In this document: positions 1 through 54,015 of the stretch, piece by piece | How the letters are laid out: the number at the start of each line of letters is the position of its first letter | Position numbering within the stretch: position 1 is the stretch's first letter | DNA from: an uncultured Clostridia bacterium | Lineage (GTDB): Bacteria; Bacillota; Clostridia; Christensenellales; UBA1242 | Reading direction: 5' to 3' | DNA: 54,015 nt | NCBI GenBank assembly: GCA_944376825.1 | Contig: CALWDY010000021.1 | Location: 1-54,015 of the forward strand | Translations under genes and position numbers: made by a program | Notes under the pieces: model-generated | Databases searched by the model: none | What the model was told of the DNA's origin: nothing | What the model saw: the letters and a program-made list of their open reading frames with translations, nothing else

Positions 1-59
1 ATGTATAAAAAATAAAAGGAGAAGAGATGAGAAAAAAGAGCAAACTTTTTTTAAGCATG
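1..59 (+). repeat. 59-bp exact terminal direct repeat (copy 1)
   Basis: 1..59 is identical to 53957..54015 (ATGTATAAAA...TTAAGCATG); includes RBS AAGGAG and the first 11 codons of ORF 27..1541. Confidence 0.97.
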
Positions 60-1541
60 GCAAGTATGGTGCTTACCGTTGCACTATTTTGCTTTGGCGT
101 GTATGCAGCACTAGGCGTAAGTTACACCATTTCAGGAAGTGTTGTGTATCAAGTTAAAGATGTGTTTGTGAACATACAAACATCACTGTACATGTCAAAA
201 GATACATCACTAACAGACCAAAGCACACTTGATGACAATGTTGAATTGTTTGAAACAAATCCAGATAATGCTCAAACAACAACAAACACCCAAAAGTTGG
301 CATACAGTGATGGACTAAAAACATATGACATAGGCACGGGTTTGATACTTGAACCAACAGAAGATGACTTAACAAGTGAAAACATACCAATAAACTATGG
401 TTCGTATGAAATACAAAACGAAGGCTTAGAAAACGAAAGTGCAAAAGGCTATGCATATTACATAGTTGTTTCTATAACAAACTACGGAACGGAAAGTGTT
501 AGTGTTACGCTTACAAATAACATAGACCCACAAGCAACAAACAGTTTAACAAAACTAAGCGGAAACACAACCATTGCTGGGAGAACAGCAGACAAAACCT
601 ATACAACCAAACACATAGTAATAGGCATGGCACTAAACGACGCAACAAAAAGCGTTAGTGATGTAAACTTTAATGTGCCAATTGTTGTTTCAAAAACATT
701 AATAGAAGAGTCTTCAATTTACGAAAGAGTAAACGCAAATAATGAACCAGATGCCAACGGAGATTATCTGCTCTTTGGTTACTATCCACAAACATTAAAA
801 GAGGCTGGCGTTGCAATAACAGGTACAACACCAAACGAAAACGGTTATTATACTGGCAGTGATGGCGAACTGTATGCTTTGGCAGAAGATGATAACTATT
901 ACAAAGTTGAAAAACTTCGTTGGCGCATACTTGATGACAACTATGGAGATGGCACAGCACTTATTGTGTGCGATACAATAATTGACAAGGTAATTTATCA
1001 ACCAAATTATACAGATCAAAATGGCTATAATTACGCAACAAACGAAAATGGGAATATAATAACAGATGTGGAAGATGCAGTGATAACAGATGCACAAAAC
1101 AGGGTTTATGCCAACAACTATAAACACAGCAACCTTCGTGCGTGGTTAAATGGTGAGTTTTATAACAAATTTACAGATGATGAAAAAGATGCAATTGTTT
1201 TAACCACAGTGGACAACAGCACAACATCGGGTGCTCCAAGTGAGTTTGTTTGTGAAAACACCATCGATTATGTTTATGCACTAACCATAAATGATGTAAA
1301 CAACGCAGCCTATGGCTTTGGAAATGAAGTTGACCCTGCAAAAAACTTTAAAGTAAGTGAGTATGCAAATGCAAAAGGTGTATATAGAGACTCCTTTAAT
1401 TATGGGTATGGGTGGCTTCGTTCGCCGAGTCCTTATTACTATGGATGCGATGTTTTTGCGGTGGGAGAAAGTTCGGTTTTTTATAACGAAGTGGCTGGAG
1501 ATGGCAATGGTGCGCTTCCCGCTTTGCAAATAGAGTTATAA
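27..1541 (+). CDS. Secreted/surface protein with C-terminal DUF6273-like (CLec-fold-like) domain; putative DGR target
   Basis: RBS AAGGAG; signal peptide ending FGVYAA; motifs LFGYYPQ, LRWRILD, NNYKHSNLRAWLN, WLRSP, GALPALQI. Confidence 0.75.
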   Translation: MRKKSKLFLSMASMVLTVALFCFGVYAALGVSYTISGSVVYQVKDVFVNIQTSLYMSKDTSLTDQSTLDDNVELFETNPDNAQTTTNTQKLAYSDGLKTYDIGTGLILEPTEDDLTSENIPINYGSYEIQNEGLENESAKGYAYYIVVSITNYGTESVSVTLTNNIDPQATNSLTKLSGNTTIAGRTADKTYTTKHIVIGMALNDATKSVSDVNFNVPIVVSKTLIEESSIYERVNANNEPDANGDYLLFGYYPQTLKEAGVAITGTTPNENGYYTGSDGELYALAEDDNYYKVEKLRWRILDDNYGDGTALIVCDTIIDKVIYQPNYTDQNGYNYATNENGNIITDVEDAVITDAQNRVYANNYKHSNLRAWLNGEFYNKFTDDEKDAIVLTTVDNSTTSGAPSEFVCENTIDYVYALTINDVNNAAYGFGNEVDPAKNFKVSEYANAKGVYRDSFNYGYGWLRSPSPYYYGCDVFAVGESSVFYNEVAGDGNGALPALQIEL

Positions 1542-1567
1542 ATTGAATTTAAAAATCTTTAAATTTG

Positions 1568-1616
1568 TTGCGAGTTAAGCAAAAGTGTTTTGCACTGCTT
1601 AACTTGCAATTTTTTT
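1568..1616 (+). terminator. Rho-independent terminator hairpin
   Basis: TTGCGAGTTAAGCA / TGCTTAACTTGCAA stem (one G-T pair) followed by a T run. Confidence 0.75.
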
Positions 1617-1646
1617 GATTAAAAACATAAATTTTAACAAAACAAA

Positions 1647-1727
1647 GGCACGAAAGTGCACACAGGGTGTGCAGTTTGCAAAGCAAACAAACCCGTTTGG
1701 AGGCTTCCAAACGGGTTTTTTCGTGCC
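1647..1727. repeat. Four-way-junction palindromic element, copy 1
   Basis: Outer stem GGCACGAAA/TTTCGTGCC encloses three perfect hairpins; second copy at 53591..53680. Confidence 0.9.
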
Positions 1728-1769
1728 GTATTTTAAAATGCAAGTTTGCCGTATTTTAAAATGCAAGTT
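1724..1769 (+). repeat. 23-bp perfect tandem duplication
   Basis: TGCCGTATTTTAAAATGCAAGTT at 1724..1746 and 1747..1769. Confidence 0.92.
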
Positions 1770-36819: not shown

Positions 36820-39450
36820 ATGCTTTTAGGCGTTATTGAAAATATTTCTGATTTTATTTATCAAATAACAACAAACGGACTTACATCGGACCTTATCTTC
36901 TACATTGGCTTAGGTTTTATCATTTTTATGGTTTTATTTTTCATGGTAAAATCACGCTATGCTTATGAAGGAAGATTGGAAAGGTCTCTTGAAAAATTAA
37001 ACAGATGGTTGTTTGTTCATCAACAAATTGATGAATCTAATTTGGTGGAATTTAACAATATGATAAAAAAAACACCAAGGTTATTAAGGTATCATTGGCA
37101 ACAATATATGTTATATCGTGAGCACGAGCCAAGTTTTTATATGAGCATGTACAACTGCATTGAAAAGCCTTTACATACAAGTTCGTACAATTCAAACATA
37201 AAAAACTTTATAGGCATCTGTTGTGCAACAATGCTTGTAACTTTTGTGTTGTCTCTTTTAAGTTATGGCAGTTCTCCGCTAACAATAGAGAGTTTTGCTA
37301 ATTCACTTATAACTCCTTTGGTTATAATGATATTAAGCGTTATATTTTTAATTTTGCTAAGATCTATGCAAAATTTCAATTTATCTAGTTTATATCAAAA
37401 TTTTCACTTGTTTAACAGATATGTTGATAAAGCATCTACAACTATTCCAAAATATGTAGACTTTGAAATCTTGTTCACAAGAAAGGAAATTCGTGGCGGA
37501 ATTCCTGTGCTTAACGAATACCTTGAAAAAAGAGCGCGCCAAGAAGCAGAAGAACTTGAAAAAGCCCGTCAAAATGCAGTTGAACATGAGGTTTATAATT
37601 TTGAAAGTACGGGGATAGATGGTTCTTTAATATTAGATAGGGCGATGAAAGAATCGGAAATATATTTAAATTCTCGTCAAAGACTTTTAACTCAAATTCA
37701 ACAATTTGAATCTGAAATAGAATCTTTAAAAAGAAATTATGAAAATGTTTCAAAAGATTATCAAAGAAAGTTGCAAGCAAGTAAAGAAAATATAGAAAGA
37801 TTGAGAACTCAACAAGAAGAGTCAACAAATCGTATTGAAGTAAACTATATTAAAAAACAACAACAAGATGAGATTAAAAAACAAGAACAACTAGAAAAAG
37901 ATCAAGATGATGCAACGCTAAGATACGAACAAGAAACTGCAACGCTTAAACAAGAAATTGAAAAATGCAGAGCAGAACTTGAAGAGAAAAAAGAATATGT
38001 TACAAAAGCAATGCTTAGTGAATATGATACATTTTCAACAAAAATTTATAAAGCAATATTAAACGATGTTCAAGAAAAACACAAACAAGAAGTTGATGAA
38101 CTTGCAGAACAAAAAGTAGAGGCACTAAAAGAACTTGAAAAAGCAAAAGAAATCAACAATATAAAAGATAGTGTAATTAATGATTTAAGAGAACTTATTC
38201 ATCAAACAGAAGAAAAACAAAAAATAGATTTAAAAACCGAAGAGGAAAAAATAGAAGAAAAACTTGATGAGGGTAATGACATTCAAGAAGATGCTTCTAG
38301 CAATGAAAATCAACAAAATATTGAAGAAGAAACCAAAATAACACAAGAAAACCAACAAGGTGTTGAAGAGCAAGAAGATGAAGAACAACAAGAAGCGCCA
38401 CAAGGTTTTTATGATGAAAATGGTTATTACTGGTTTGAAAACGGAACATATTATGATGATAAGGGATATTACCACGATGAAGATGGTTTGGTTTATGACC
38501 AAGATGGCAATTATATCCCACAAGAAGAATATGAAAAATTAACAAAACCACAAGAGCCACAAATTAATGACAATATTTTAAATGGCGAAGAAAATGCAAA
38601 TGAAAGTTTACAAGATTTAACAAAAGAAGACAACAAAGAACCTGAAAGTGCAAGAGTAGAAAAAGTTGAAGAAATTGTAAGCCAAAATCAAGAAGAAAAA
38701 GATACAGAAAAAGATACAAAAAAAGAAGAGCCAATACAAACAAAAATTGCCGAAATTGACGAAATTATTCCAGTTGAAAAAGAAGAACACAGCGAAGAAG
38801 TTGTGTTGCAACAAAACCAAGAGACTCAACCTTTAAACAATCAAATTGAAATAAACGAAGAACAACCAAAAAGAAGAGGCAGGCCAAGAAAAACAACAAA
38901 TAACGAAGAAAAGCCAAAAACGACAGGAAAGAGAGGCAGGCCAAGAAAAACTGAAAGTGCACAAGATAAACCAAAAGTGGAAGGCAAGCGTGGCAGACCA
39001 AGGAAAACAGACACAACGGAAGAGAAGCCAAAAGTAGCAGGAAAACGAGGTAGGCCAAGAAAAACCGAAACGACGCAAGACAAACCAAAAACATCGGGCA
39101 AACGAGGTAGACCAAGAAAAACCGAAACGACGCAAGACAAACCAAAAACTAGCAGAAAGCGTGGTAGACCAAGAAAAAATGCCGATGATTTAAAAGCAAT
39201 CAGCAATCAAATTTTGGAAGAAAGCAATCGTTTAATTCAACAACAAAATGAGCTAAATAGACAACTTGGTGAAACATTGCAACAAATAAAAGATCAACAA
39301 AACGAAGAAAAACTTCAAGCACAAGAAATTTTACAAGAAGATGAACAAATTAAAACAGACATGCAAGAAAATCAAGAAGCGCCAACAACCGAAAATATAG
39401 AAATTGGTGAAGACAATAAACCAAAACATGATGGTGAAGGTCAAAATTAA
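36820..39450 (+). CDS. Membrane-anchored coiled-coil protein with Tyr/Gly/Asp repeats and six AT-hooks
   Basis: About 3 TM segments, long coiled coil, GFYDENGYYW-type repeats, acidic linker, 6x RGRPRK. Confidence 0.85.
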   Translation: MLLGVIENISDFIYQITTNGLTSDLIFYIGLGFIIFMVLFFMVKSRYAYEGRLERSLEKLNRWLFVHQQIDESNLVEFNNMIKKTPRLLRYHWQQYMLYREHEPSFYMSMYNCIEKPLHTSSYNSNIKNFIGICCATMLVTFVLSLLSYGSSPLTIESFANSLITPLVIMILSVIFLILLRSMQNFNLSSLYQNFHLFNRYVDKASTTIPKYVDFEILFTRKEIRGGIPVLNEYLEKRARQEAEELEKARQNAVEHEVYNFESTGIDGSLILDRAMKESEIYLNSRQRLLTQIQQFESEIESLKRNYENVSKDYQRKLQASKENIERLRTQQEESTNRIEVNYIKKQQQDEIKKQEQLEKDQDDATLRYEQETATLKQEIEKCRAELEEKKEYVTKAMLSEYDTFSTKIYKAILNDVQEKHKQEVDELAEQKVEALKELEKAKEINNIKDSVINDLRELIHQTEEKQKIDLKTEEEKIEEKLDEGNDIQEDASSNENQQNIEEETKITQENQQGVEEQEDEEQQEAPQGFYDENGYYWFENGTYYDDKGYYHDEDGLVYDQDGNYIPQEEYEKLTKPQEPQINDNILNGEENANESLQDLTKEDNKEPESARVEKVEEIVSQNQEEKDTEKDTKKEEPIQTKIAEIDEIIPVEKEEHSEEVVLQQNQETQPLNNQIEINEEQPKRRGRPRKTTNNEEKPKTTGKRGRPRKTESAQDKPKVEGKRGRPRKTDTTEEKPKVAGKRGRPRKTETTQDKPKTSGKRGRPRKTETTQDKPKTSRKRGRPRKNADDLKAISNQILEESNRLIQQQNELNRQLGETLQQIKDQQNEEKLQAQEILQEDEQIKTDMQENQEAPTTENIEIGEDNKPKHDGEGQN
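38869..39177 (+). repeat. 57-bp (19-aa) coding tandem repeat of AT-hook motifs
   Basis: Six RGRPRK cores with 19-aa period; synonymous variation between units. Confidence 0.92.
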
Positions 39451-42874: not shown

Positions 42875-45800
42875 ATGAAAAAAATTGCCATTTACATATT
42901 GCTAATGTTTTGTGCATTTTCAGTTTCTGTGCTTAGTGCATGCAATCAAGATGATTCACGCATAAGTTTTAATGTGGATTATATTGAAATGAACATTGGA
43001 GATGAACTTGATGTTTATTCAAAATTAAATGTAAAAGGAGTGGCAATTCAAGATGTAACATTAAAATCTTTGGATAGTTCTGTTATATCTTTAATAGACG
43101 GCAAAGCGACTGCTGTTGGACAAGGTACAACCTTTGTACAAGCATCTTATGACCTTAAAATTGCAAACCTAGAAATTAAAGTAAATGGTGAGGCAATAGA
43201 ATGCGAAGCGCCTATGGGCCTTATGTATGACACGCAAAATGGTTTCGTAACATGGAATCATGTTTTAGTTAAAATTGGCAATGAAATACAACAAGTTAAT
43301 TCCTATACCGTTGAAATAAAATCTCAAAACACAGTGAAAGAAGAAATAGTAATTGGTGATAATAAATATCAACTTAAAGATAGTGGCGTTTATGAAATTA
43401 GAGTAAAATGCAATTCTTTTACATCAAATGGAACAACATTGTATCAAGGCTCAGAATATAGCCAAAGTTTAGTTTTAACAAAACTAGAAAAACCATATAA
43501 TTTAAAATACAACGACGAAACAAAAACGCTTTCATGGGAAGCAAGTGATGATATAGCAACTTTTGTTGTAAACATAAATGGAGTTTTGTCACAGCCAACA
43601 ACAAAAAAAGAAATGGTTGTTGATTTAACCACTGTAAATATATCAAAACAAGAAACATTTGAAGTTTCAGTAATAAGTCAAACATCTAACAAAGATGGAA
43701 ACGATATTGTTGCATCAAGCGAAAGTGATAAAAAAGTTTGGACAAGACTATATGCTCCACAATTAAATATTGCAAACGGAGTTATCACTTGGGACAACAC
43801 TCAACAGGGTGACTTTCATTATGAAATAATAAGAACGGATATAAACAATGTTGTTTCAAAAGAAGTTGTTAGTGGAGGTGTTTATTCTCTTGATGGTATC
43901 TCAGCAGGAACTTATAACACCATACAACTTAAAGCAGTTAGTGACAGTGAAAATTATTTATCAAGCGAAAATTTAAGTGTTTTGTCGGATGTGATTAAAC
44001 TTGAAAAAGCAACACTATCCTTTAACCCAATAAATAGAACATTTGTTGTTGAAAACTATGAGGGTAAAAATATTGAACTTGAAATAACATATAAAAACAG
44101 CATTGAAAAAATATCTCTTCAAAACGGCACATATCTTTTTGACAAAACGGGCGTAGGTGCATATTCAGTAAAAGCTTATGTATATGCACAAGATAGCAAA
44201 GAAATAAATGCCGATGCTTCAAACACCATTAATCTTTTGAAACTTTCACAAATTGACTCTTCTTCTATAAATCAAAGCGTAAATGAAAACAAGTATTTTG
44301 TAACTTTTGGCGAAGTTGAAAACGCAGACACCTATTCACTTTCATATTTTAAAGATGGATTGGAAAACACACTTGTAAAACAGGCAGATGGTTCTTATGG
44401 TGATGTTGACACTATTTTTAATAATATTGGAACATATCAAATAACCATAACTGCATCTAGTTCAAAAATGACAGCCGTTGACACTTTTATTTTGCCAAGT
44501 AAAACAACTATAAGTGTGGTAAGACAAGAAAATGTTTCGCTTTCATTAAACGAAGAAAACGGACCAAAATCAATAAGTTGGAACACTATTTCAACGGCAA
44601 ATGGATATTCGTATTATATACTTAAAAACGGAGAGTTGTTTGAAGAAAACACAATTTCATCTTCTTTGATATCTGTAGAAAACTTTGAGTTTGGAAAATA
44701 TGAATTTTTTGTAAAGGCAGTAGGCTCGTTTAATAGTGGAGTTTTGTATTTAGATAGTTTAAATTATGCAAAAGTGGATTTTGAAATAGAATTATTGCTA
44801 GATACTCCAACTGTAAATTTTGATGTTGAAACAAAAATTTTAACAATTACAAAAGTAAATTATGCAAACAATTATGAAATAACAATAAATTTAAAAACTT
44901 TAAGTTTTGATAATTCACAAGACATAATAACAATAGATTTAACTCAAAAACTACAACAGCCAGGTGATTATGTTGTTGAAGTAAAAGCAGTCAATGCCGA
45001 CAATGATCTTATTTTTGACTCAAACACAAACTCAATTACAATTACAAAACTCAGTTCACCACAACAATTCAATTTGTCTATGGATGGTGTAATAACAATT
45101 TTAGATTATCCAAACGGACAAATGCTTGATGAAAATAGGGCAACACTTCTTATAAACGATGAAATTACCGAAACATTGGATGATGGTTTAAATTTTGTGT
45201 TAAAAGCAAAATTTAATGCAACAAAACAAAAGGTAAACAATCACTATTATTTAGATAGTGAATGGTGTCAATTTAATATACAAAGATTAATTGCACCAAC
45301 TGCTCCTGTTTTGAATGAAACTGTTATATCATGGCAACAAACAACACAAAAAAACTTTGTGTATTTGCTAACAATTACACAAGGTGAAACAGTGAAACAA
45401 ATACAATTAAACGAAAATCAAATAGATGTGTTTGATGAAAGAATTAGCCCAATAAACACAAAACAAGATTTTTCTGTTAAATTATGCTATTTGTATGTTG
45501 GAGCAAATATAAATTTGCAAGATAAAATCGATATATATTTTACATCACAATATAGCGAAGAGACAACTATTCATAAAATTGAAAGTGATGCTGTTTTAAG
45601 CGTTGTTGAAGAAGATGAAAAGGTTTTGGCAAATTGGACACAAAGTTCAATTAGTGATGTGAGTTATGAACTTTTATTAAATGATGAAATTATTTATAGC
45701 GGAAATGAAACATCAAAAGATATAACTGAATATGTTGTAGATGCGGGGAAATACACATTAAAATTAAAAATTTCAAAACAAGGATTTTTAACAAGTGAAT

Positions 45801-48800
45801 ATGTTGAGGTGTATGTTGAAAGACTGGCAAGTGCTACAAGCATAAAAATAGATGAAGATGAAAATATCATTGTTGAAACTAATTATAACACAGAAGATTT
45901 GCCAGATTCAGTAGCCCAATTAGATCATATAACAATATCAAAAGACCAAGATCAAAATATAACAAACCTTTCAAGTTATTTTGGAAACTTTGAAATAAGT
46001 GTGGGGCTTGTTGCAAAAAAATACACAGAGGGGAAATATTATTTCCTATCAAGTGCAATAAGTACATTTGAATTTTCAAGAATTCAAACCCTAACAGATC
46101 CAGCAATTAATAACAATATAATATCATGGGATGATATTGCACAAACATCAAATTATAAACTTAAATTTTCAAATGGAGAACAAGACTTGTATTACTTGTG
46201 TAGCGGAGTAAATTATATAAGCGCACAAGATGAAAATATAAAACAAATTATAGACACTTTGAATTCTGGCACTCTAACCGTTAGCGTGTCGGCAAGAGTG
46301 GGTGAAATTAGTGCATTAATTGGACAAGAAAATTTGTTGTCTTCATATTACTCTAACACAGTTCAAATTATAAAATTAAACCCAGTTTCTAATATTATTT
46401 TACAATCCGAAGAAAAAAATCAACAAGAGATAAAGATATCATGGGATTATGATTTCCAAGGAGTTAGTGTTGGTCAATTTGTTATAGAAATTTACAAAAA
46501 TGATGAATATTTGGAAACAATATATGCATTTGGAACATCTAAACATGTAATGTCTGCGGGCATGACATACGAAGGTACATATTATGTTAAAATTTATGCA
46601 GAAGGAACAAGCAACTGCATAAATAGTGATACAGTTGCTTCTGCAACTTATAAAAGACTTGCAAAACCTCAAAATCTTACAATCACTCAAGATGCACTTT
46701 TATCTTTTACAGGCGCTGCAGGGGCTGTTAAATATGGCGTTTCATATTATGCGAATGACTTGGTAAAGGGCGAACTTGAAACTTTATCTACCAGCATAAA
46801 TTTAAAAGAATATTTATTTGCAAGTGCGTTTAGTGGGCAAATAACAATAAATGTATATTCTATTGGAGGAAATGGGCAGGACGAAGGCAAAACATTTTCA
46901 AGTCAGCAAAGTGACAATTATGTTGTTACAAAACCAGTTGAGGCAAACATAACCCTTTCAACAAATAAACTTGTTGCCGGTCAAACAAAAATTGATGAAG
47001 TTGATGACAAAAGCAAGTATGTTATAACCATAAGCACAGATAATAGAATAGTTAAAGAATTAGAACTAAACTATGGTGAAGAATACATTTTTGAAGACTG
47101 GTACTATAAAGATACAAATGAAAAAGTTCCTACTAATGTTGAAAAAGTATATTCTATTAAAGTTGAAAGAAAACTAGAAGAAGAAAATTGCATAAAGTCA
47201 GATTCAACATTAAAAATTGTTACAAAATTGGCAGAAGTTAATAATGTGGGATTTATAAGAAAAACAGATAGTGCAGATAGTACAATATATCTTCGCGGAG
47301 ATGTGGTTGCAAATGCTTCAAAATATGTTTTAAATTTTTTGGGCACAGATTTTCAAACAAATGAATTTAATGTTTCAGGTCAATACGCCGAACTGGCTCT
47401 TTTAGAAAACATATATTCACAAATTCCACAAAACTTTACAATGACAGTTTATGCGCAAGGACTTATAGGCGGAAGAGTGGATTATATTGACAGTTCAAAA
47501 GCTTCGGTGTCGGGCAAAAAATTAAGTGCCGTAACAAACTTTAAAACAGTAAATGGTGTTCTTTGTTGGGATAAAGTGGATGAGGCGTATGATTATGCAA
47601 TAGATGTAAACAACACCGAGATTTTAACGGGATATGTTTTAAATTCAAAACACACATTAAGTGAAAATTTAAATGGCAAACAAGGTGAATTGGTTTTAAA
47701 TATAAAAGCGGTTGGAAATGTAAAAACATCACTGGTTAAGCAAGATATTGTTTTAGACTCTTTGTTTATAACAAATGAAGATGGAACAAGAAAAGATTAC
47801 AGCTGTAAAAAACTAGCAATACCACAAAACTTGAAAGTTGTTATGGGCTATATTGCTTTTACAAAAGTAGAGGGGGCAGATGGTTATCAGGTTGTGTATG
47901 GAACAAACAACTTCAACCTTGATGAACTATACAGTGAACAAACCGATTATTCAATTTTCTATGCACAAGAAATGTATAATATGTTTAAAGAAAATCAAAA
48001 ATATTCTATTTCTGTTATGGCAACATCAACAGAAGAAGATGTTATTTATTCGGACAAAACACAAGATTTAAGCATAAAAATCTTATCAAATAATTGCGCA
48101 GGAACATTGAATATTGTTTTAAAACAAACATCAACAAATCCTGTTAAATATGACTATACTATATCTCAACTAATATGGACGGCAGATTCAAACGCAGTAA
48201 ACGGATATAATGTAAACTTTAATGGTGAAATATTCAATACAAAAAACACTGAATTTGTTTTAGATGGAGATGGAAACCTAGAAGCAGGAAAACATCAAAT
48301 AAAACTTTCTGTGGCAGGTTCTAGTGAAATTGATGCTGATGGCAGTTATCTTTTAAATTCTAAATATAGTGAAACATTATATTTTACAAAACTTTCAAGT
48401 CCAAATCTAAAAGTAGAAAATGGTGAACTTGTTTGGGACAAAATTGATGGGGCAACAGGATATTTGTTATATCTTGGCGATGAACTTCAAAATAGTGGTT
48501 TGCCAATAGAAACAAACACCTATTATCTAGATTTGTCGAATACTTCTAATACAACATATTCTTCGTATAAGGTTAGAGCAATTTCAACATCTTCTCAGTA
48601 TATTGCAAGTTCGGTGGGAACATATAAAGATGCAGAAGGAAACAACTTGGAAGTTGTAAAACTACATTCACCAGATGCGTTCATGATAAAAGAAGGGGCA
48701 TTTAGATGGGAATTAAATGATATTTGGTCTTTATTGCCACTTGTAACAAAAGGAATAATAGAAAATCCCGTTACTGCAACAACCCAAACTTTGGCAACAA

Positions 48801-51800
48801 CAAAAATCAATATGAAATTTGCAAGCAAAACAAGCACCGCCGAATTTAGTTATGAAGATTATGCATTAAAATATTGTTTTGTAACGGATAAATTAAAACA
48901 AGACATTGCAAATAATATTTTAATACCAGCCGAGCAAAAAGAAATGATTTTGGCGCTTTTGGAAACCTATCAGTATAATGGCTGGCCTACACTTAATAAT
49001 GGATACTTAGAAATGGGCGCTGATTTGCCTGCTGGTGCATATAATTTAACATTAAGACAAAAGGGTGATAGTGTAAAATATTTAACATCTAATTATGGTA
49101 GCAATATAGAAGTTTATGTTCCATATGCTCCTCAAATTTCAATTGTATACTCAAACAATGCCTATGTTCTTTCATGGAACTCAATCAACATTCCTGCATC
49201 TTACAATATGCAAACTCCAACTTATGCAATTTTTGCAGACCAAAATGTTGAAGAAGAAGGAAAAATTGTTTCAAAAAGAGTTGAAATTGGCAGAACAACA
49301 TGCACAAGTTTCAACATTACCAATTTGGTTGAAAGTGGCACAATAAATTCTTCATTTACAGCGATATATGTTTATGTTGCTGGAAATGATGACAAAGTGT
49401 TAAATGGAAAAATCTCAAACAAAATAACATTAACCATTTTAGACCCAACAACAGCAAGAGTGAGAGATGGTGTAATTTATTGGAATGCACAAGAAAGTGC
49501 AAGTGCTTATCAAGTAACATACACTGAAAACAATGGCAACGTTGTGGGTGAAACAAAAACACTTTCATTAAAAGATGCAACTTGGGATTGTGCAGAACTT
49601 CAAAGTTACAACAAAATAGAAGAGTACTCGATAAAAATTCAAGCAATTGGGTTAAAAGTTGCAACAACAACTCATGCAATAATTTCGGGACCAAACAGCA
49701 GTGTTGGAAAGGTGTCAAAACTTCCAACGCCAATTAGCACAGTTGAAGATGGAAGAATTAGATGGTTAAGTGAAGAAAACAGTTCTTCATATAAAGTAAT
49801 TGTTAATAAAGATGACAATTTGTTAAATACTGTATCAATAATAAATCAACCAGACTTAGATAATTATATTTGGTTTGAATCAACCTTTACAGAGGAAAAC
49901 CTATTATACAAATTCCAAGCAGTGGGAAGTCTTGATATAGACTTGTCAACAGGAGAAAAAGCATTTGTAAACTCTAATAAAGGAAGCGATATTTATGGAA
50001 CAACAATAAGCAAAGTTTCAAATGTTGTTGCAAGAAAAGGTGTTTTATATTGGGATATTGCAAAAAATAATAATATTAACATAAGTTATTATAAACTTAC
50101 ATTTAATCAAGTGGATAATGATGGCAACCCTATAAATGAAGACTTTGTGATTATAAACAATAACTTCACAAATGCAGATGGAACATGCTCTTATAATTGT
50201 GCTGACCTTGCAAGTGGAAGATATAGAGTTACAATTCAAGCCTTCTTCAAGTCTAGTGATAATCTTGGAACATATATTTATAATGGAGAAACGGCATACT
50301 ATTTGATGAGTATCAAGTCGGATAGTTATGAATTCCAAAAATATAGTGATGTTCAAGGCGAAGATGAAAGTGGTGTCGTTTACAATATTGTACTAAAAGA
50401 TGGTGAGTTTACTTGGAAATATGTTGGAAATTTAGAAGAAGAAAACTATCAATATGAGTTGAAATTTAAAATTAATGAAGATGTAACAAGAGAACTTGTT
50501 GTAATAACAGAAGAAAACAGTTACTTCTCATATGTAACAAACAAACTTATAAATGAAAATCCTTTTGAACTTCAAATAAGAGTTATTCCAAAAGACGGTG
50601 TAGAAGGTTTTGTAAACTCAAACTATGTTACTTTTGTAAACCCAAATAATAAAAATCTGCCAAACATCTATCAATTAAATGGTATTAGCGCAGACGATAT
50701 TGTTCTTAGAGATTTAAGAGAAGAAGATATAGAAAATATACAAGATGTTCCAAGCAGTGATTTACATATAATTTGGAACAAATACTCCGTTTCAACGGGT
50801 GATACTAATATAGATTTGCAAGTTAAATATAAGGTTAATTTCTGGACAAGTGAAGATGAAACAGTAAAATCTATAATTGTTGATACAATGTATATAAATA
50901 CTCTTGAATTCCAATCTACAATAAGCGATGAGTATACTCTTTACTATACAATTCAAGTTTTGCCACTTGGAAATCAAAGTTATATACCTTCTTGCATTTC
51001 AGATGTTAGAGAAATTCAAAAACCACAATCGGTTCAAAGTGTTGGATTTAACAGCGAAGAAAAATATTTTTACTGGTCAACAGAAGGCACATCCAACGAC
51101 CATTCATATAAAATTAAAGATGAAATAATTGAGACTAACGATCTTGGAGAAATTGTATATGTTGATGGCGAGCCAAATGTGCTTAGAACATACATTTACA
51201 CAACACAAAACAACCTTACAAATAGATACACGCCAACAGAACAAGGAATGCATAAAGTTTCGGTTGCGGTTGTTGTAAAAAATAGCGACAATGATGGAAG
51301 TTTAACATCTGATTACACATATTATTACGATGAAGTTTTAGAGCCAGAAAATAAAGACAAAGGAACAGCTGTTTTGGTTGACTTGTTTAAAATTACCCAA
51401 GAAGGCTCAAACGGAACGGTGGAAAAACCATATTTAATAGAAACGAAAGAACAGTTTAACAACATTAAATATAGACTACAAAAAGATGAATACTTAAATA
51501 GTTACACTTTAATGGAAAATGGAGTGGAGCAAACAGTAACATTAAGTGAAGAAAACAAACAATTTAACTTTAAGCAAATTGCTTCAATCTATAATGTCTC
51601 TCCATTGGGTCAAGGAACAAACTTTGAATTTGTTGGCAATTATGATGGAAACAAAAAAACATTAAGTTGGGACTATGACTTAACAAATATAACTGCATAT
51701 CAATCAATACAATATGTTGCATTGTTCTCGCAAATAGAAAGTGGCGCAAAAGTGCAAAATTTAAAAGTAGTTGCAAACCTAACGGGACAACTTAAAGTTG

Positions 51801-52684
51801 GTGCAACAATATCACTGCTTTGCTACAAAAACTTGGGAACAATTCAAAATGTGGTCTTGGGTTCACAAGGGCAAAGCATAGATTTAACATCAAACAAAGA
51901 CATGTTTGTTTATGGAATTGCATATCAAAACTTAGGAACAATTCAAAATGTGGTAAACTACTATGATGTTTCACTTAAAAACAGCACAGACGTTCTTGGA
52001 ATAAAAGCAAGTTTTGCTTCTATTGCAGGGGAAAACGAAGGTCTTGTTCTTAAATGTGGACACTATGGAAACATTACTCTTCAAACAACAATTTCAACAA
52101 GCGGTGGAATTGTTGGAACAAACAGAGCAAACGGAACAGTTGAAGCATGCGTGCTTAAAAATCAAACAACAACACTTAGCATAAACAAACAAGCACAACA
52201 AGGTTCAACGCAAGGTGCAGTAAACTTCTATTTTGGAGGAATTATTGGTCAAAACGACGGAACAGTAAATTATTGTTACACCTACACAAATTCAGTAATA
52301 TATAGAAGTGCTCCTGTTGGCTCTATTAATAAAGTTTATATTGCAGGTCTTGTTGGACTTTCAAATAATGGCAACATAAAAGGTTCTTATGTTTATAATG
52401 TGGTAAATGCTTCAAGTGCCCAATCAATACAAATAGGCAATGTATATTTGTTTGCATATATTACATGGTCGTCAGGTGGCGTTGATACAAGATGTTTCTA
52501 TAATGAAGGGCAATCTCATGCTCCAATTGGAGGAGTTGGTGTTGATAAATTTAGCATAACATCATATTCAAAAGTTCCTCTTGGAGATAGGTTAAATGGA
52601 ACAGAAAGCACATACTACTTAAACAACGAAAACGAGTTCCCAAAATTTGAATGGGAAAACGAAGTTGGTAGTTGGGTAGAGTGA
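42875..52684 (+). CDS. Giant (3269 aa) surface lipoprotein: Ig-like domain, many FN3-like repeats, C-terminal GLUG-like region
   Basis: Lipobox LSAC; recurring KL..P.nL...l.W units; GTVEKPYLI, FVGNYDGN, GGIVG.N and GGIIGQN motifs. Confidence 0.85.
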   Translation: MKKIAIYILLMFCAFSVSVLSACNQDDSRISFNVDYIEMNIGDELDVYSKLNVKGVAIQDVTLKSLDSSVISLIDGKATAVGQGTTFVQASYDLKIANLEIKVNGEAIECEAPMGLMYDTQNGFVTWNHVLVKIGNEIQQVNSYTVEIKSQNTVKEEIVIGDNKYQLKDSGVYEIRVKCNSFTSNGTTLYQGSEYSQSLVLTKLEKPYNLKYNDETKTLSWEASDDIATFVVNINGVLSQPTTKKEMVVDLTTVNISKQETFEVSVISQTSNKDGNDIVASSESDKKVWTRLYAPQLNIANGVITWDNTQQGDFHYEIIRTDINNVVSKEVVSGGVYSLDGISAGTYNTIQLKAVSDSENYLSSENLSVLSDVIKLEKATLSFNPINRTFVVENYEGKNIELEITYKNSIEKISLQNGTYLFDKTGVGAYSVKAYVYAQDSKEINADASNTINLLKLSQIDSSSINQSVNENKYFVTFGEVENADTYSLSYFKDGLENTLVKQADGSYGDVDTIFNNIGTYQITITASSSKMTAVDTFILPSKTTISVVRQENVSLSLNEENGPKSISWNTISTANGYSYYILKNGELFEENTISSSLISVENFEFGKYEFFVKAVGSFNSGVLYLDSLNYAKVDFEIELLLDTPTVNFDVETKILTITKVNYANNYEITINLKTLSFDNSQDIITIDLTQKLQQPGDYVVEVKAVNADNDLIFDSNTNSITITKLSSPQQFNLSMDGVITILDYPNGQMLDENRATLLINDEITETLDDGLNFVLKAKFNATKQKVNNHYYLDSEWCQFNIQRLIAPTAPVLNETVISWQQTTQKNFVYLLTITQGETVKQIQLNENQIDVFDERISPINTKQDFSVKLCYLYVGANINLQDKIDIYFTSQYSEETTIHKIESDAVLSVVEEDEKVLANWTQSSISDVSYELLLNDEIIYSGNETSKDITEYVVDAGKYTLKLKISKQGFLTSEYVEVYVERLASATSIKIDEDENIIVETNYNTEDLPDSVAQLDHITISKDQDQNITNLSSYFGNFEISVGLVAKKYTEGKYYFLSSAISTFEFSRIQTLTDPAINNNIISWDDIAQTSNYKLKFSNGEQDLYYLCSGVNYISAQDENIKQIIDTLNSGTLTVSVSARVGEISALIGQENLLSSYYSNTVQIIKLNPVSNIILQSEEKNQQEIKISWDYDFQGVSVGQFVIEIYKNDEYLETIYAFGTSKHVMSAGMTYEGTYYVKIYAEGTSNCINSDTVASATYKRLAKPQNLTITQDALLSFTGAAGAVKYGVSYYANDLVKGELETLSTSINLKEYLFASAFSGQITINVYSIGGNGQDEGKTFSSQQSDNYVVTKPVEANITLSTNKLVAGQTKIDEVDDKSKYVITISTDNRIVKELELNYGEEYIFEDWYYKDTNEKVPTNVEKVYSIKVERKLEEENCIKSDSTLKIVTKLAEVNNVGFIRKTDSADSTIYLRGDVVANASKYVLNFLGTDFQTNEFNVSGQYAELALLENIYSQIPQNFTMTVYAQGLIGGRVDYIDSSKASVSGKKLSAVTNFKTVNGVLCWDKVDEAYDYAIDVNNTEILTGYVLNSKHTLSENLNGKQGELVLNIKAVGNVKTSLVKQDIVLDSLFITNEDGTRKDYSCKKLAIPQNLKVVMGYIAFTKVEGADGYQVVYGTNNFNLDELYSEQTDYSIFYAQEMYNMFKENQKYSISVMATSTEEDVIYSDKTQDLSIKILSNNCAGTLNIVLKQTSTNPVKYDYTISQLIWTADSNAVNGYNVNFNGEIFNTKNTEFVLDGDGNLEAGKHQIKLSVAGSSEIDADGSYLLNSKYSETLYFTKLSSPNLKVENGELVWDKIDGATGYLLYLGDELQNSGLPIETNTYYLDLSNTSNTTYSSYKVRAISTSSQYIASSVGTYKDAEGNNLEVVKLHSPDAFMIKEGAFRWELNDIWSLLPLVTKGIIENPVTATTQTLATTKINMKFASKTSTAEFSYEDYALKYCFVTDKLKQDIANNILIPAEQKEMILALLETYQYNGWPTLNNGYLEMGADLPAGAYNLTLRQKGDSVKYLTSNYGSNIEVYVPYAPQISIVYSNNAYVLSWNSINIPASYNMQTPTYAIFADQNVEEEGKIVSKRVEIGRTTCTSFNITNLVESGTINSSFTAIYVYVAGNDDKVLNGKISNKITLTILDPTTARVRDGVIYWNAQESASAYQVTYTENNGNVVGETKTLSLKDATWDCAELQSYNKIEEYSIKIQAIGLKVATTTHAIISGPNSSVGKVSKLPTPISTVEDGRIRWLSEENSSSYKVIVNKDDNLLNTVSIINQPDLDNYIWFESTFTEENLLYKFQAVGSLDIDLSTGEKAFVNSNKGSDIYGTTISKVSNVVARKGVLYWDIAKNNNINISYYKLTFNQVDNDGNPINEDFVIINNNFTNADGTCSYNCADLASGRYRVTIQAFFKSSDNLGTYIYNGETAYYLMSIKSDSYEFQKYSDVQGEDESGVVYNIVLKDGEFTWKYVGNLEEENYQYELKFKINEDVTRELVVITEENSYFSYVTNKLINENPFELQIRVIPKDGVEGFVNSNYVTFVNPNNKNLPNIYQLNGISADDIVLRDLREEDIENIQDVPSSDLHIIWNKYSVSTGDTNIDLQVKYKVNFWTSEDETVKSIIVDTMYINTLEFQSTISDEYTLYYTIQVLPLGNQSYIPSCISDVREIQKPQSVQSVGFNSEEKYFYWSTEGTSNDHSYKIKDEIIETNDLGEIVYVDGEPNVLRTYIYTTQNNLTNRYTPTEQGMHKVSVAVVVKNSDNDGSLTSDYTYYYDEVLEPENKDKGTAVLVDLFKITQEGSNGTVEKPYLIETKEQFNNIKYRLQKDEYLNSYTLMENGVEQTVTLSEENKQFNFKQIASIYNVSPLGQGTNFEFVGNYDGNKKTLSWDYDLTNITAYQSIQYVALFSQIESGAKVQNLKVVANLTGQLKVGATISLLCYKNLGTIQNVVLGSQGQSIDLTSNKDMFVYGIAYQNLGTIQNVVNYYDVSLKNSTDVLGIKASFASIAGENEGLVLKCGHYGNITLQTTISTSGGIVGTNRANGTVEACVLKNQTTTLSINKQAQQGSTQGAVNFYFGGIIGQNDGTVNYCYTYTNSVIYRSAPVGSINKVYIAGLVGLSNNGNIKGSYVYNVVNASSAQSIQIGNVYLFAYITWSSGGVDTRCFYNEGQSHAPIGGVGVDKFSITSYSKVPLGDRLNGTESTYYLNNENEFPKFEWENEVGSWVE

Positions 52685-52750: not shown

Positions 52751-52850
52751 AGATTAACAAAAAACTTTGCAAATAAAATATTTAGATTTTTAAAATCATG
52801 TAAAAACTTTTAAAGTCATATAAAACAAATTGTTTGCATTATATATTTGT

Positions 52851-53540
52851 ATGAGATATCCCTTTTTAACTATAAAAAATTTTAAAAAAGTTTTACTTAT
52901 AATTGGCATTATGATTGGCTTGTGTACTGCACTTATGTCAGGTGCGATTGTGTATTCACAATCAAAAACATACACATATAGTGTTGTAATTGATGCTGGG
53001 CATGGTGGAATAGACGGTGGAAGTGAGGGCTTTAATGGTACAAAAGAAAGCGAAATCAATTTGGTATACGCAAAAACTTTGGAACAATACTTTAAAGATT
53101 TTGGTTTTAAAACAACTATGACAAGAATAAATGAAAATGGGTTATATAGCCCTTTTGCATCAAACAAGAAAAAAGATGACATGCAAAAACGAAAAGAGTT
53201 GATTGAAAGCGTAAAGCCAGACATGGTGATTAGTATACATATGAATAGTTTTGCTCTTTCTTCAAGTCGTGGAGCACAAGTTTTTTATAATGAAGATAAT
53301 GAAAATTCAAAATTGCTAGCCGACCAAATACAAAAACAATTTGTGCAAAATTTGGTTGAACCAAGACAAAATTCTCAAAAGGGCGATTATTACATTTTAA
53401 ATTGCACTTCTATTCCTAGTGTAATTGTTGAATGTGGATTTATATCCAATCAAGAAGAAGAATTGTTATTAAACACAAAAGAATATCGTGAAAAGTTGTG
53501 TTACAGTATTTTGTGTGGAGTTGTGAGTTATTTAATGTAA
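52851..53540 (+). CDS. N-acetylmuramoyl-L-alanine amidase (Amidase_3, CwlD-like)
   Basis: N-terminal TM, VIDAGHGGIDGG, ESEINL, SIHMN, RGAQVFY, VECGFISN. Confidence 0.9.
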   Translation: MRYPFLTIKNFKKVLLIIGIMIGLCTALMSGAIVYSQSKTYTYSVVIDAGHGGIDGGSEGFNGTKESEINLVYAKTLEQYFKDFGFKTTMTRINENGLYSPFASNKKKDDMQKRKELIESVKPDMVISIHMNSFALSSSRGAQVFYNEDNENSKLLADQIQKQFVQNLVEPRQNSQKGDYYILNCTSIPSVIVECGFISNQEEELLLNTKEYREKLCYSILCGVVSYLM

Positions 53541-53590: not shown

Positions 53591-53680
53591 AGGGCACGAA
53601 AGTGCAAACAATGTTTGCAGTTTGCACTATAAAGCAAACCAACCCGTTTGGCAATTGCCAAACGGGTTCTTTCGTGCCCT
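53591..53680. repeat. Four-way-junction palindromic element, copy 2
   Basis: AGGGCACGAAAG/CTTTCGTGCCCT outer stem with three inner hairpins; compensatory changes relative to copy 1. Confidence 0.9.
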
Positions 53681-53877
53681 TTATACTCAACATAATTTTT
53701 TGTATGCATTTTGTTGTGCTCGGGCAAACACAATTTTTCTTTTACCAAACCCAACAACACAAACATTGAAATAATCCTAGCACAGCAAATACAAGCAATT
53801 TTAATCAATTATCCACAACAATAAAGCATTTAAAAACCTCCAAAAACAAAAAAAATTTAGCAAACATACAAAATTGC

Positions 53878-53909
53878 TTGACACGGGGGGGGGGGGGGTA
53901 TCCTATTAT
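53878..53909 (+). promoter_or_regulatory. Putative phase-variable promoter with G14 tract in the spacer
   Basis: TTGACA(53878..53883)-C-G14(53885..53898)-TATCCT, with TATTAT overlapping at 53904. Confidence 0.75.
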
Positions 53910-53956
53910 TAGTTATACAATATATACATTTTTATATGGCAAGTTGTTCACAATAT

Positions 53957-54015
53957 ATGTATAAAAAATAAAAGGAGAAGAGATGAGAAAAAAGAGCAAA
54001 CTTTTTTTAAGCATG
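53957..54015 (+). repeat. 59-bp exact terminal direct repeat (copy 2)
   Basis: Identical to 1..59. Confidence 0.97.
53983..54015 (+). CDS. Partial CDS (MRKKSKLFLSM...), paralogue of or same gene as 27..1541
   Basis: Same RBS and first 11 codons; runs off the window end. Confidence 0.8.
   Translation, partial: MRKKSKLFLSM

Follow-up and report, generated by a model that had tools for sequence, protein, structure and literature searches.

The contig analysed here, C21 (CALWDY010000021.1) of an uncultured Clostridia bacterium (assembly GCA_944376825.1), carries the beginning of the same gene at both of its ends, and this raises the question whether the two ends form one locus whose product is both switched on and off and rewritten at its binding tip. 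The window, 54,015 nucleotides (nt) long, is the entire contig, one of 33 in a genome of 1,051,304 bp with about 29% GC that is estimated to be 97% complete and 0.15% contaminated. The gene at the first end (27..1541, plus strand) is complete and encodes a 504-amino-acid (aa) protein with a signal peptide, an N-terminal module shared with paralogues and a C-terminal DUF6273 domain. Its 5' twin runs off the other end behind a promoter with 14 consecutive G residues in the spacer. The initial annotation had joined the two ends into a single adhesin locus, one of a repertoire, in which slipped-strand mispairing switches the gene and a diversity-generating retroelement (DGR) diversifies its binding site in trans. 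The explanation that is considered probable as a whole differs from this proposal. In it, the gene belongs to a family of putative poly-G contingency loci, the twin is an assembly repeat, gene 27..1541 is most likely an orphan DGR target, and the structured element found near both ends probably has an insulating role.

The promoter proposed for the twin is borne out at 53878-53904 as TTGACA-C-G14-TATCCT, the sequence after the G14 tract being TATCCTATTAT. The -35 hexamer TTGACA (53878..53883, +) precedes the G14 tract, a putative slipped-strand switch (53885..53898, +), and two candidate -10 hexamers occupy 53899..53909 (+), namely TATCCT at 53899-53904 with a spacer of 15 and TATTAT at 53904-53909 with a spacer of 20. 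Promoters were called by consensus match, and a tract was recognized as a homopolymer of about 8 nt or more between the -35 and -10 hexamers, as is found here. Such tracts are exceptional in this genome. Runs of G or C number 229, 30, 3 and 1 at lengths of 5 to 8, followed by single runs of 10, 11, 11, 12 and 14, and 6 runs of at least 8 were observed against 0.38 expected for independent, identically distributed bases. Four of the five runs of at least 10 lie in the layout TTGACA-C(GAC)-Gn-TATCCTATTAT, 84-98 nt 5' of the start codons of family genes. In the tract context TTGACA-C(GAC)-Gn-TATCCTATTATTAG, the tract is G14 at the end of C21, G10 at the end of C25, G12 in C24 and G11 in C33, despite promoter flanks that are identical or 92% identical. 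A DnaA-box-like nonamer, TTATCCACA, also lies near all four promoters (window 53809-53817, +, about 69 nt 5' of the -35 hexamer; C24:14012, C25:49057, C33:277). These are four among 21 copies in the genome and, being paralogous, they are not independent; a similar box lies 3' of the poly-G promoters of loci L054 and L055 in another metagenome-assembled genome (MAG).

Variation in tract length is also evident between public samples. The stretch is present in 17 public runs from 7 studies, all of them chicken-gut or other gut metagenomes, and four of the runs were compared as Logan contigs; depth tables were uninformative, and uncovered parts were not counted as evidence. In run X2, a 50-nt unitig carries 19 nt of C33-type upstream sequence followed by G13, as compared to G11 here, and the C25-type promoter of the same run carries G10. 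In run X8, a 231-nt contig with the C25-type promoter aligns ungapped with 6 mismatches only at G11, as compared to G10 here. The tract length is thus polymorphic, among paralogues as well as across samples. In all four runs the contigs break up at the tract into unitigs of 31-50 nt, which fits length heterogeneity, and none of the contigs listed for these runs spans the tract with at least 31 nt on both sides.

The G tracts probably represent classical slipped-strand phase variation, which is the best reading of the sequence pattern. Members of the family have in common a near-identical cassette of promoter, 5' untranslated region (UTR) and signal peptide, together with an N-terminal module of about 200 aa, and differ in the C-terminal binding domain, which is DUF6273 in gene 27..1541 and consists of BspA-type leucine-rich repeats (LRR) or belongs to no known family in the paralogues. 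Slipped-strand mispairing at replication would alter the length of the G10-G14 tract in four members, and with it the spacing between the -35 and -10 hexamers. The changed spacing would in turn make each tract-bearing gene switch stochastically and reversibly between a transcribed and a silent state, as a contingency locus. From this arrangement, we infer both the assignment of the promoter and the ON/OFF switching. The earlier claim that each gene is switched goes too far, as four family promoters carry a tract and others carry none.

Relatives show the design as well. A search for TTGACAC-N0-3-G9+ found it in 8 of 200 further genomes belonging to the same GTDB family, the reversed control giving 0, and the open reading frames (ORFs) 3' of these sites mostly start in a signal-peptide-like or lipoprotein-like manner; a search of JGI metagenome contigs for the promoter pattern gave 0 matches. 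DUF6273 is present in 21 of 60 other genomes of the family. Twenty-nine DUF6273 loci were examined, and 18 have a complete 5' end with at least 150 nt upstream. Seven of these 18 have a G run of at least 7 in the 300 nt preceding the gene, and such a run lies upstream in five of six DUF6273 loci from named MAGs. At L055 the run is 427 nt upstream, at L058 it stands before the preceding 207-aa ORF, and L056 has no run; L057 and L066 are one locus. Among 23 such sites, spacers measure 15-19 nt with G7-G9 and 14-23 nt with G10-G14, a spread by tract length that a length-dependent switch would predict. One locus, L076 (G014:C7:141099-144650), has two poly-G promoter-like sites, with G12 and G9, 5' of a single DUF6273 gene, and the 1.1-Mb relative G024 has 19 DUF6273 matches, a very large expansion in a reduced genome.

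The family in the genome under study is dispersed, and its members differ mainly at their C-termini. A search of the encoding genome with the 504-aa protein gave 15 matches, and the closest paralogues, encoded on C24 and C9, are 73-76% identical to the protein over aa 1-228 and 1-256 and divergent beyond; the module common to the paralogues measures roughly 200 aa. When the C-termini of ten paralogues were scanned, three showed BspA-type LRR_5, one a weak DUF1573 match and six no Pfam family. In a large protein collection, this N-terminal module also occurs in fusion with LRR domains (P0002, 91% identity, 46% of the query). DUF6273 exceeds the cut-off in gene 27..1541 only, and this genome therefore has no repertoire of C-type-lectin (C-lec) paralogues. 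The multi-locus adhesin repertoire of the initial annotation thus survives as a dispersed family, not as a set of C-lec variants.

In gene 27..1541, a predicted Sec signal peptide (27..110, +; MRKKSK..., hydrophobic helix, VYA/A), deduced from the sequence and from a helix at aa 2-26 of the AlphaFold2 (AF2) model, is followed by the N-terminal beta-rich module common to the paralogues (111..716, +), which has no Pfam or NCBIfam family, and by the C-terminal DUF6273/C-lec-like domain (715..1538, +; Pfam core at nt 1092-1535). The Pfam match to DUF6273 (PF19789) covers aa 356-503 with an E-value of 4.1e-16 and 59.8 bits against a gathering cut-off of 23.5, and a six-frame search scores the domain at 62.2 bits. 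The C-lec-like C-terminal domain, as first annotated, is therefore confirmed as a member of a documented DGR target class. An NCBIfam scan of the protein gave neither a family nor a SipW-type signal model, and a profile search against PDB sequences gave just a weak LRR match, caused by LRR paralogues in the alignment.

The AF2 model (mean predicted local distance difference test score, 74) consists of the N-terminal helix, the beta-rich module and the C-terminal domain. Its best match among solved structures is the IgA peptidase of Thomasclavelia ramosa, 9qa6 (Foldseek E 2.5e-5, probability 1.00, 287 aligned columns), the N-terminal domain of which is annotated as DUF6273 (PMC12402451). The likeness lies in the fold and in the secreted nature of both gut-Firmicute proteins. 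However, the sequence identity is 16%, and the window protein has no M64 peptidase domain. A fold search of BFVD gave 22 matches at E ≤0.001, of which 10 are named DUF6273 and a few are tail-fibre or receptor-binding proteins. In the large protein collection the 504-aa protein stands alone in its cluster, full-length DUF6273 homologues are 35-43% identical to it, and neither variant copies of the protein nor fragments of aa 300-504 at E ≤1e-20 were found. For the family proteins as a group, we infer a surface location.

The identical 5' twin at the opposite end of the window is real, since bases 1-59 equal 53957-54015 exactly, and its origin is indicated by the other contigs. The genome contains four copies of the 59-mer, each of them at a contig end, that is, at the start and end of C21, at the end of C25 and, on the reverse strand, at the end of C9. 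The ends of C21 and C25 have an identical 127-nt suffix in common, and the start of C21 and the reverse-complemented C9 an identical 127-nt prefix. Read from these ends, the two 127-mers, which overlap by 59 nt, are one 195-nt exact repeat that is present at two loci, entered from either the G14 or the G10 promoter and left into either the DUF6273 gene or the gene of a 379-aa paralogue. The 5' two-thirds of the repeat (53889..54015, +), equal to the end of C25, contain the ribosome-binding site (RBS) at 53974-53977 and the ATG at 53983 of the family gene that runs off the contig. The 3' two-thirds (1..127, +), equal to the reverse-complemented end of C9, contain the end of the 5'UTR, the RBS GGAG at 18-21 and the first 34 codons. 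The pattern is what an assembly graph with a presumed k of 127 leaves once a short repeat edge has been dropped.

The presence of the 59-mer at four contig ends, together with the 127-nt identities, thus points to an assembly-graph repeat rather than a circle, and the joining of the window ends into one locus is not borne out. The two graph paths imply that the promoter of gene 27..1541 is either the G14 promoter at the end of C21 or the G10 promoter at the end of C25. The end-joined layout is the less likely of the two paths, as it would close the housekeeping genes of the contig into a circle of 54 kb. Family genes are cut by at least eight contig ends (the start and end of C21, the ends of C25, C9 and C11, the starts of C18 and C30, and C33), and both C33 and C11 lead into the start of C18, which forms a second repeat node. 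Apart from C21, the sole contig with a terminal overlap is C26 (6168 nt; 81 nt of overlap), which by the same reasoning may point to a repeat of 173 nt, or else be a small circle.

The 3' end of gene 27..1541 has the appearance of a DGR target. DUF6273 is described as C-lec-like in PMC10743442, PMC11792537 and bioRxiv 10.1101/2024.10.15.618418, which also name it as a DGR target whose variable region (VR) occupies its C-terminal end; the gene likewise combines a C-lec fold with a C-terminal VR-type end. With the gut-phage DGR targets of these sources (tentaclins, PMC10743442; Faecalibacterium prophages, PMC11792537; and the targets of bioRxiv 10.1101/2024.10.15.618418), it shares the Pfam domain, a WLRSP-type boundary and the placing of the VR, a potential one here, at the C-terminus of DUF6273. 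The VR-like end (1412..1535, +) has the boundary motifs TGGCTTCGTTCGCC (WLRSP) and GCGCTTCCCGCTTTGC, and a GC of 0.48-0.50 as compared to about 0.37 for the gene; no cognate template repeat (TR) was found for it. The two motifs are common, at the DNA level, to proven VR/TR pairs of relatives and occur in 13 of 35 loci at two mismatches or fewer.

The machinery for diversification in trans, which the initial annotation had assumed, was not found in the 97% complete assembly. Reverse transcriptase (RT, PF00078) gave 0 matches, the positive controls being matched in 3 of 14 control genomes, and the Avd-type gene (PF05635) also gave 0 matches in this genome. A search for the TR with nt 1050-1560 by blastn returned just short chance words from the genome, and in an adenine-tolerant sliding scan of the same genome the best non-self window agreed at 62 of 130 positions. 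None of the TRs of seven relatives that were compared with the VR of the window is cognate, and a search of IMG/VR for the VR boundary patterns gave 0 exact flanks and one chance match in a contig of 70% GC. As no DGR was found in this genome, the binding tip is most likely fixed, and gene 27..1541 is most likely an orphan or relic DGR target. Orphan targets without a DGR are also reported in bioRxiv 10.1101/2024.10.15.618418.

Several observations weigh against slipped-strand switching. Some of them would agree with G tracts that are part of a fixed promoter architecture, as a regulator site or through spacer rigidity, or that are partly a sequencing or assembly artefact, the genes being regulated conventionally. 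None of the four loci has the optimal 17-nt spacer; the spacers measure 14-16 nt to TATCCT and 19-21 nt to TATTAT, which is the better -10 hexamer, and most copies are off-optimum by either. Off-optimum spacers fit promoters that are mostly OFF and, equally, a wrong promoter assignment. A regulator might act at the conserved TTATCCACA box that lies near the promoters. Homopolymer lengths are error-prone in short-read assemblies, poly-G being a weak point of short-read chemistry, and paralogue branching alone can explain the contig breaks at the tract. MutS and MutL are encoded in the genome, which indicates that no mismatch-repair defect raises slippage. The pattern TTGACAC-N0-3-G9+ was found in none of six other same-genus genomes searched, and all 17 public runs are kept as contigs, with 0 of 17 on record as RNA. 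Against a fixed tract, however, stand the near absence of other G runs of at least 10 from a genome of 29% GC, the variation of length among near-identical paralogous promoters and among samples, and the internal position of the tract, which has unique flanks and is present in independent studies. The recurrence of the design in many independent assemblies at tract lengths of 7-15 is further the signature of mutable tracts and not of a fixed motif. A fixed or artefactual tract is hence held to be quite improbable, and slipped-strand switching is retained as the explanation of the promoters. The circular arrangement of C21 is still harder to sustain and was rejected. A true circular replicon of 53,956 bp, with gene 27..1541 behind the G14 promoter and an element on either side, would account for the exact terminal overlap of 59 nt, and any terminal overlap is seen in just 2 of 33 contigs. 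The overlap is not unique to the two ends of C21, though, as the 59-mer also ends C25 and C9 and the 127-nt identities suit a two-locus repeat. Nor is the gene content that of a replicon. The contig encodes an AddA/AddB-type helicase-nuclease, NrdD, GlmS, a RelA/SpoT-like protein, a P-type ATPase and an Amidase_3 gene, and such housekeeping genes indicate a piece of the chromosome, not a small circle; its GC of 0.295 is the same as that of the remaining contigs. The circle is therefore regarded as scarcely credible, and the terminal twin is interpreted as an assembly repeat.

The orphan status of the DGR target has to be weighed against a DGR situated elsewhere, in a prophage, a phage or an unbinned contig, which would rewrite the VR-like 3' end in trans while the poly-G switch is also active. 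A DGR may sit on a short or unbinned contig of this 33-contig MAG; repeat-rich or phage contigs are often lost in MAG binning. The VR-type boundary motifs and the raised GC at the 3' end of the gene agree with this possibility, and so do several relatives. One contig of G029, which belongs to the same GTDB family, carries a G10 promoter, an 828-aa target with a signal peptide and two DUF6273 domains, a VR, a TR and a 373-aa RT, and all 23 of 23 VR mismatches fall at TR adenines. A second DUF6273 target of G029, on another contig, also lies behind a G10 promoter, and TR adenines account for 20 of its 21 mismatches. The adenine-mismatch method was validated on this genome, which is the same as G203, and the combined poly-G and DGR design that the initial annotation had imagined does exist there. 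RT matches are further found in 8 of 19 other same-genus genomes (6 above the cut-off), VR/TR pairs with the WLRSP boundary adjoin RTs in G211 and G210 (two loci), a TR-like stretch adjoins an RT in G113, and G041 has two VR/TR pairs. However, the lack of an RT, an Avd-like gene and a TR in the nearly complete genome, the lack of a cognate among the TRs of relatives, and the single chance match in IMG/VR all argue against a DGR acting in trans. The targets inspected in G211 and G041 have neither signal peptide nor poly-G and look prophage-borne, and the protein collection contains no variant copies of the protein. Rewriting in trans is thus considered rather unlikely. The same degree of doubt applies to a broader speculation, by which reduced-genome gut Clostridia would have two layers of variation, the poly-G switch deciding whether the adhesin is made and the DGR rewriting its tip, with gene 27..1541 as a live trans target of a DGR lost from the bin and the 85-nt element as the limit of a movable cassette. 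An orphan or relic target with a fixed tip is preferred over both.

The flanking elements are arranged as first annotated, with a terminator and an element after the complete gene and a second copy of the element before the twin, and, like the other sequence features at the two ends, they exceed chance expectation by a wide margin. Gene 27..1541 is followed by its own intrinsic-terminator-like hairpin with a T7 run (1567..1616, +; 15-bp stem, z-score -5.4). The first copy of the element (1647..1727) lies between the convergent genes 27..1541 and glmS, and a perfect 23-nt tandem duplication (TGCCGTATTTTAAAATGCAAGTT x2; 1724..1769) starts in its last bases and reaches to within 5 nt of the glmS stop codon. 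The second copy (53593..53678) follows the amidase gene at 52830..53540 and marks the 5' edge of the promoter cassette that is duplicated at C24. Both window copies fold as a four-way junction of a closing stem and three hairpins, with z-scores of -9.1 to -10.0 on both strands. The longest hairpin, GC-rich, of 12-13 bp and followed by a T-rich stretch, is terminator-like on the minus strand in both. A search of the genome ties the element to family genes, as had been suggested, the three copies (two in the window and one on C24) all being at family loci. At the end of C21 and in C24, it forms precisely the 5' border of a block of 435 nt with 92% identity, which extends through the poly-G promoter into the gene; the copy at 1647 stands alone.

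In the alignment of the three copies, standard base pairs fill 104 of 105 pair cells, with compensatory changes at two pairs; the structure statistics on these three copies were not significant, as 120 of 500 shuffles reached the observed values. The best Rfam 15 score for the element is ≤20 bits against cut-offs of ≥37, and an Rfam scan of the whole window gave no match at the gathering level. A covariance model applied to 150 genomes scored highly for the genome's own copies only, with just weak matches of 21-33 bits in 11 of the 149 other family genomes, which indicates that the element is not a conserved family-wide motif. The element pattern gave one chance match in JGI metagenome contigs, in a coding region of a high-GC contig. 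The element is probably an intergenic repeat with a defined structure and a terminator-like hairpin, which borders the duplicated promoter cassette and has a putative function in insulation from read-through; it may also take part in recombination among the family loci. Intergenic four-way elements of about 100 nt, with the same architecture and unrelated sequence, were also observed at L037 (G035:C3:500601-500701) and L042 (G121:C28:2926-3024). They do not adjoin family genes and may represent a recurrent structural class in the bacterial family.

Two further G runs were observed outside the family promoters. At C17:13029-13039 (minus strand), a G11 run stops 2 nt short of the ATG of a gene for a 225-aa multi-pass membrane protein, where an RBS would be expected; it is the only run of at least 10 away from the family promoters and is possibly a further contingency locus. 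At C2:32274-32281, a G8 run directly adjoins TATAATGG, 4 nt ahead of the start of a 650-aa ORF whose product begins with a hydrophobic segment. Within the window, an ORF of 3269 aa (42875-52684, +), just 5' of the amidase gene, gave no Pfam match at E ≤1e-5. Another, of 876 aa (36820-39450, +), has AT-hook motifs and a 57-nt (19-aa) tandem repeat present 5.3 times at 38876-39178.

Homopolymer contingency loci are textbook knowledge for Neisseria, Campylobacter, Helicobacter, mycoplasmas and treponemes, and three systems come close to the one proposed here. In Neisseria, poly-G in the promoter spacer of porA and poly-C in that of opc phase-vary surface proteins, and the likeness lies in a G/C homopolymer between the -35 and -10 hexamers that sets spacing and transcription of surface proteins in host-associated bacteria. 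Phase variation by simple sequence repeats in Neisseria in general is covered by PMC5084427 and PMC5320596. The present system differs in belonging to uncultured, reduced-genome, Gram-positive-type gut Clostridia and in having a cassette duplicated across paralogues with swapped C-termini. The Vlp lipoproteins of Mycoplasma hyorhinis are encoded by several genes whose 5' regions are conserved and whose promoter spacers contain poly-A. They resemble the present family in a conserved promoter, 5'UTR and signal peptide with divergent mature parts, in a homopolymer switch for each gene and in a small AT-rich genome. The tract is, however, poly-G and not poly-A here, and folded binding domains (C-lec-like, LRR) take the place of repetitive lipoprotein tails. 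In Treponema pallidum, poly-G tracts lie upstream of the paralogous tpr surface-protein genes (PMC7864442). The tracts modulate transcription, short ones being permissive and long ones silent, a threshold with which the spacer pattern of G7-G9 as compared to G10-G14 agrees; the phylum and the protein family are different, and the tract lies here inside a canonical TTGACA...-10 promoter. Keyword searches of a literature library, which are no proof of absence, returned the classical pathogens but neither homopolymer phase variation in uncultured gut Clostridia of about 1 Mb nor a combination of poly-G with a DGR. The contingency-locus family is real and, though of an ordinary kind, previously undescribed.

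The poly-G promoter design looks common in this lineage. It is tied to DUF6273 and the C-lec fold, a class otherwise known as a preferred DGR target. The repeats formed by such families are a main cause of contig breaks in these MAGs and can mimic circular contigs. In G029, both mechanisms are coupled on the same genes, which offers a testable case of stacked variation in the adhesins of commensals, one layer concerning whether an adhesin is made and the other what it is.

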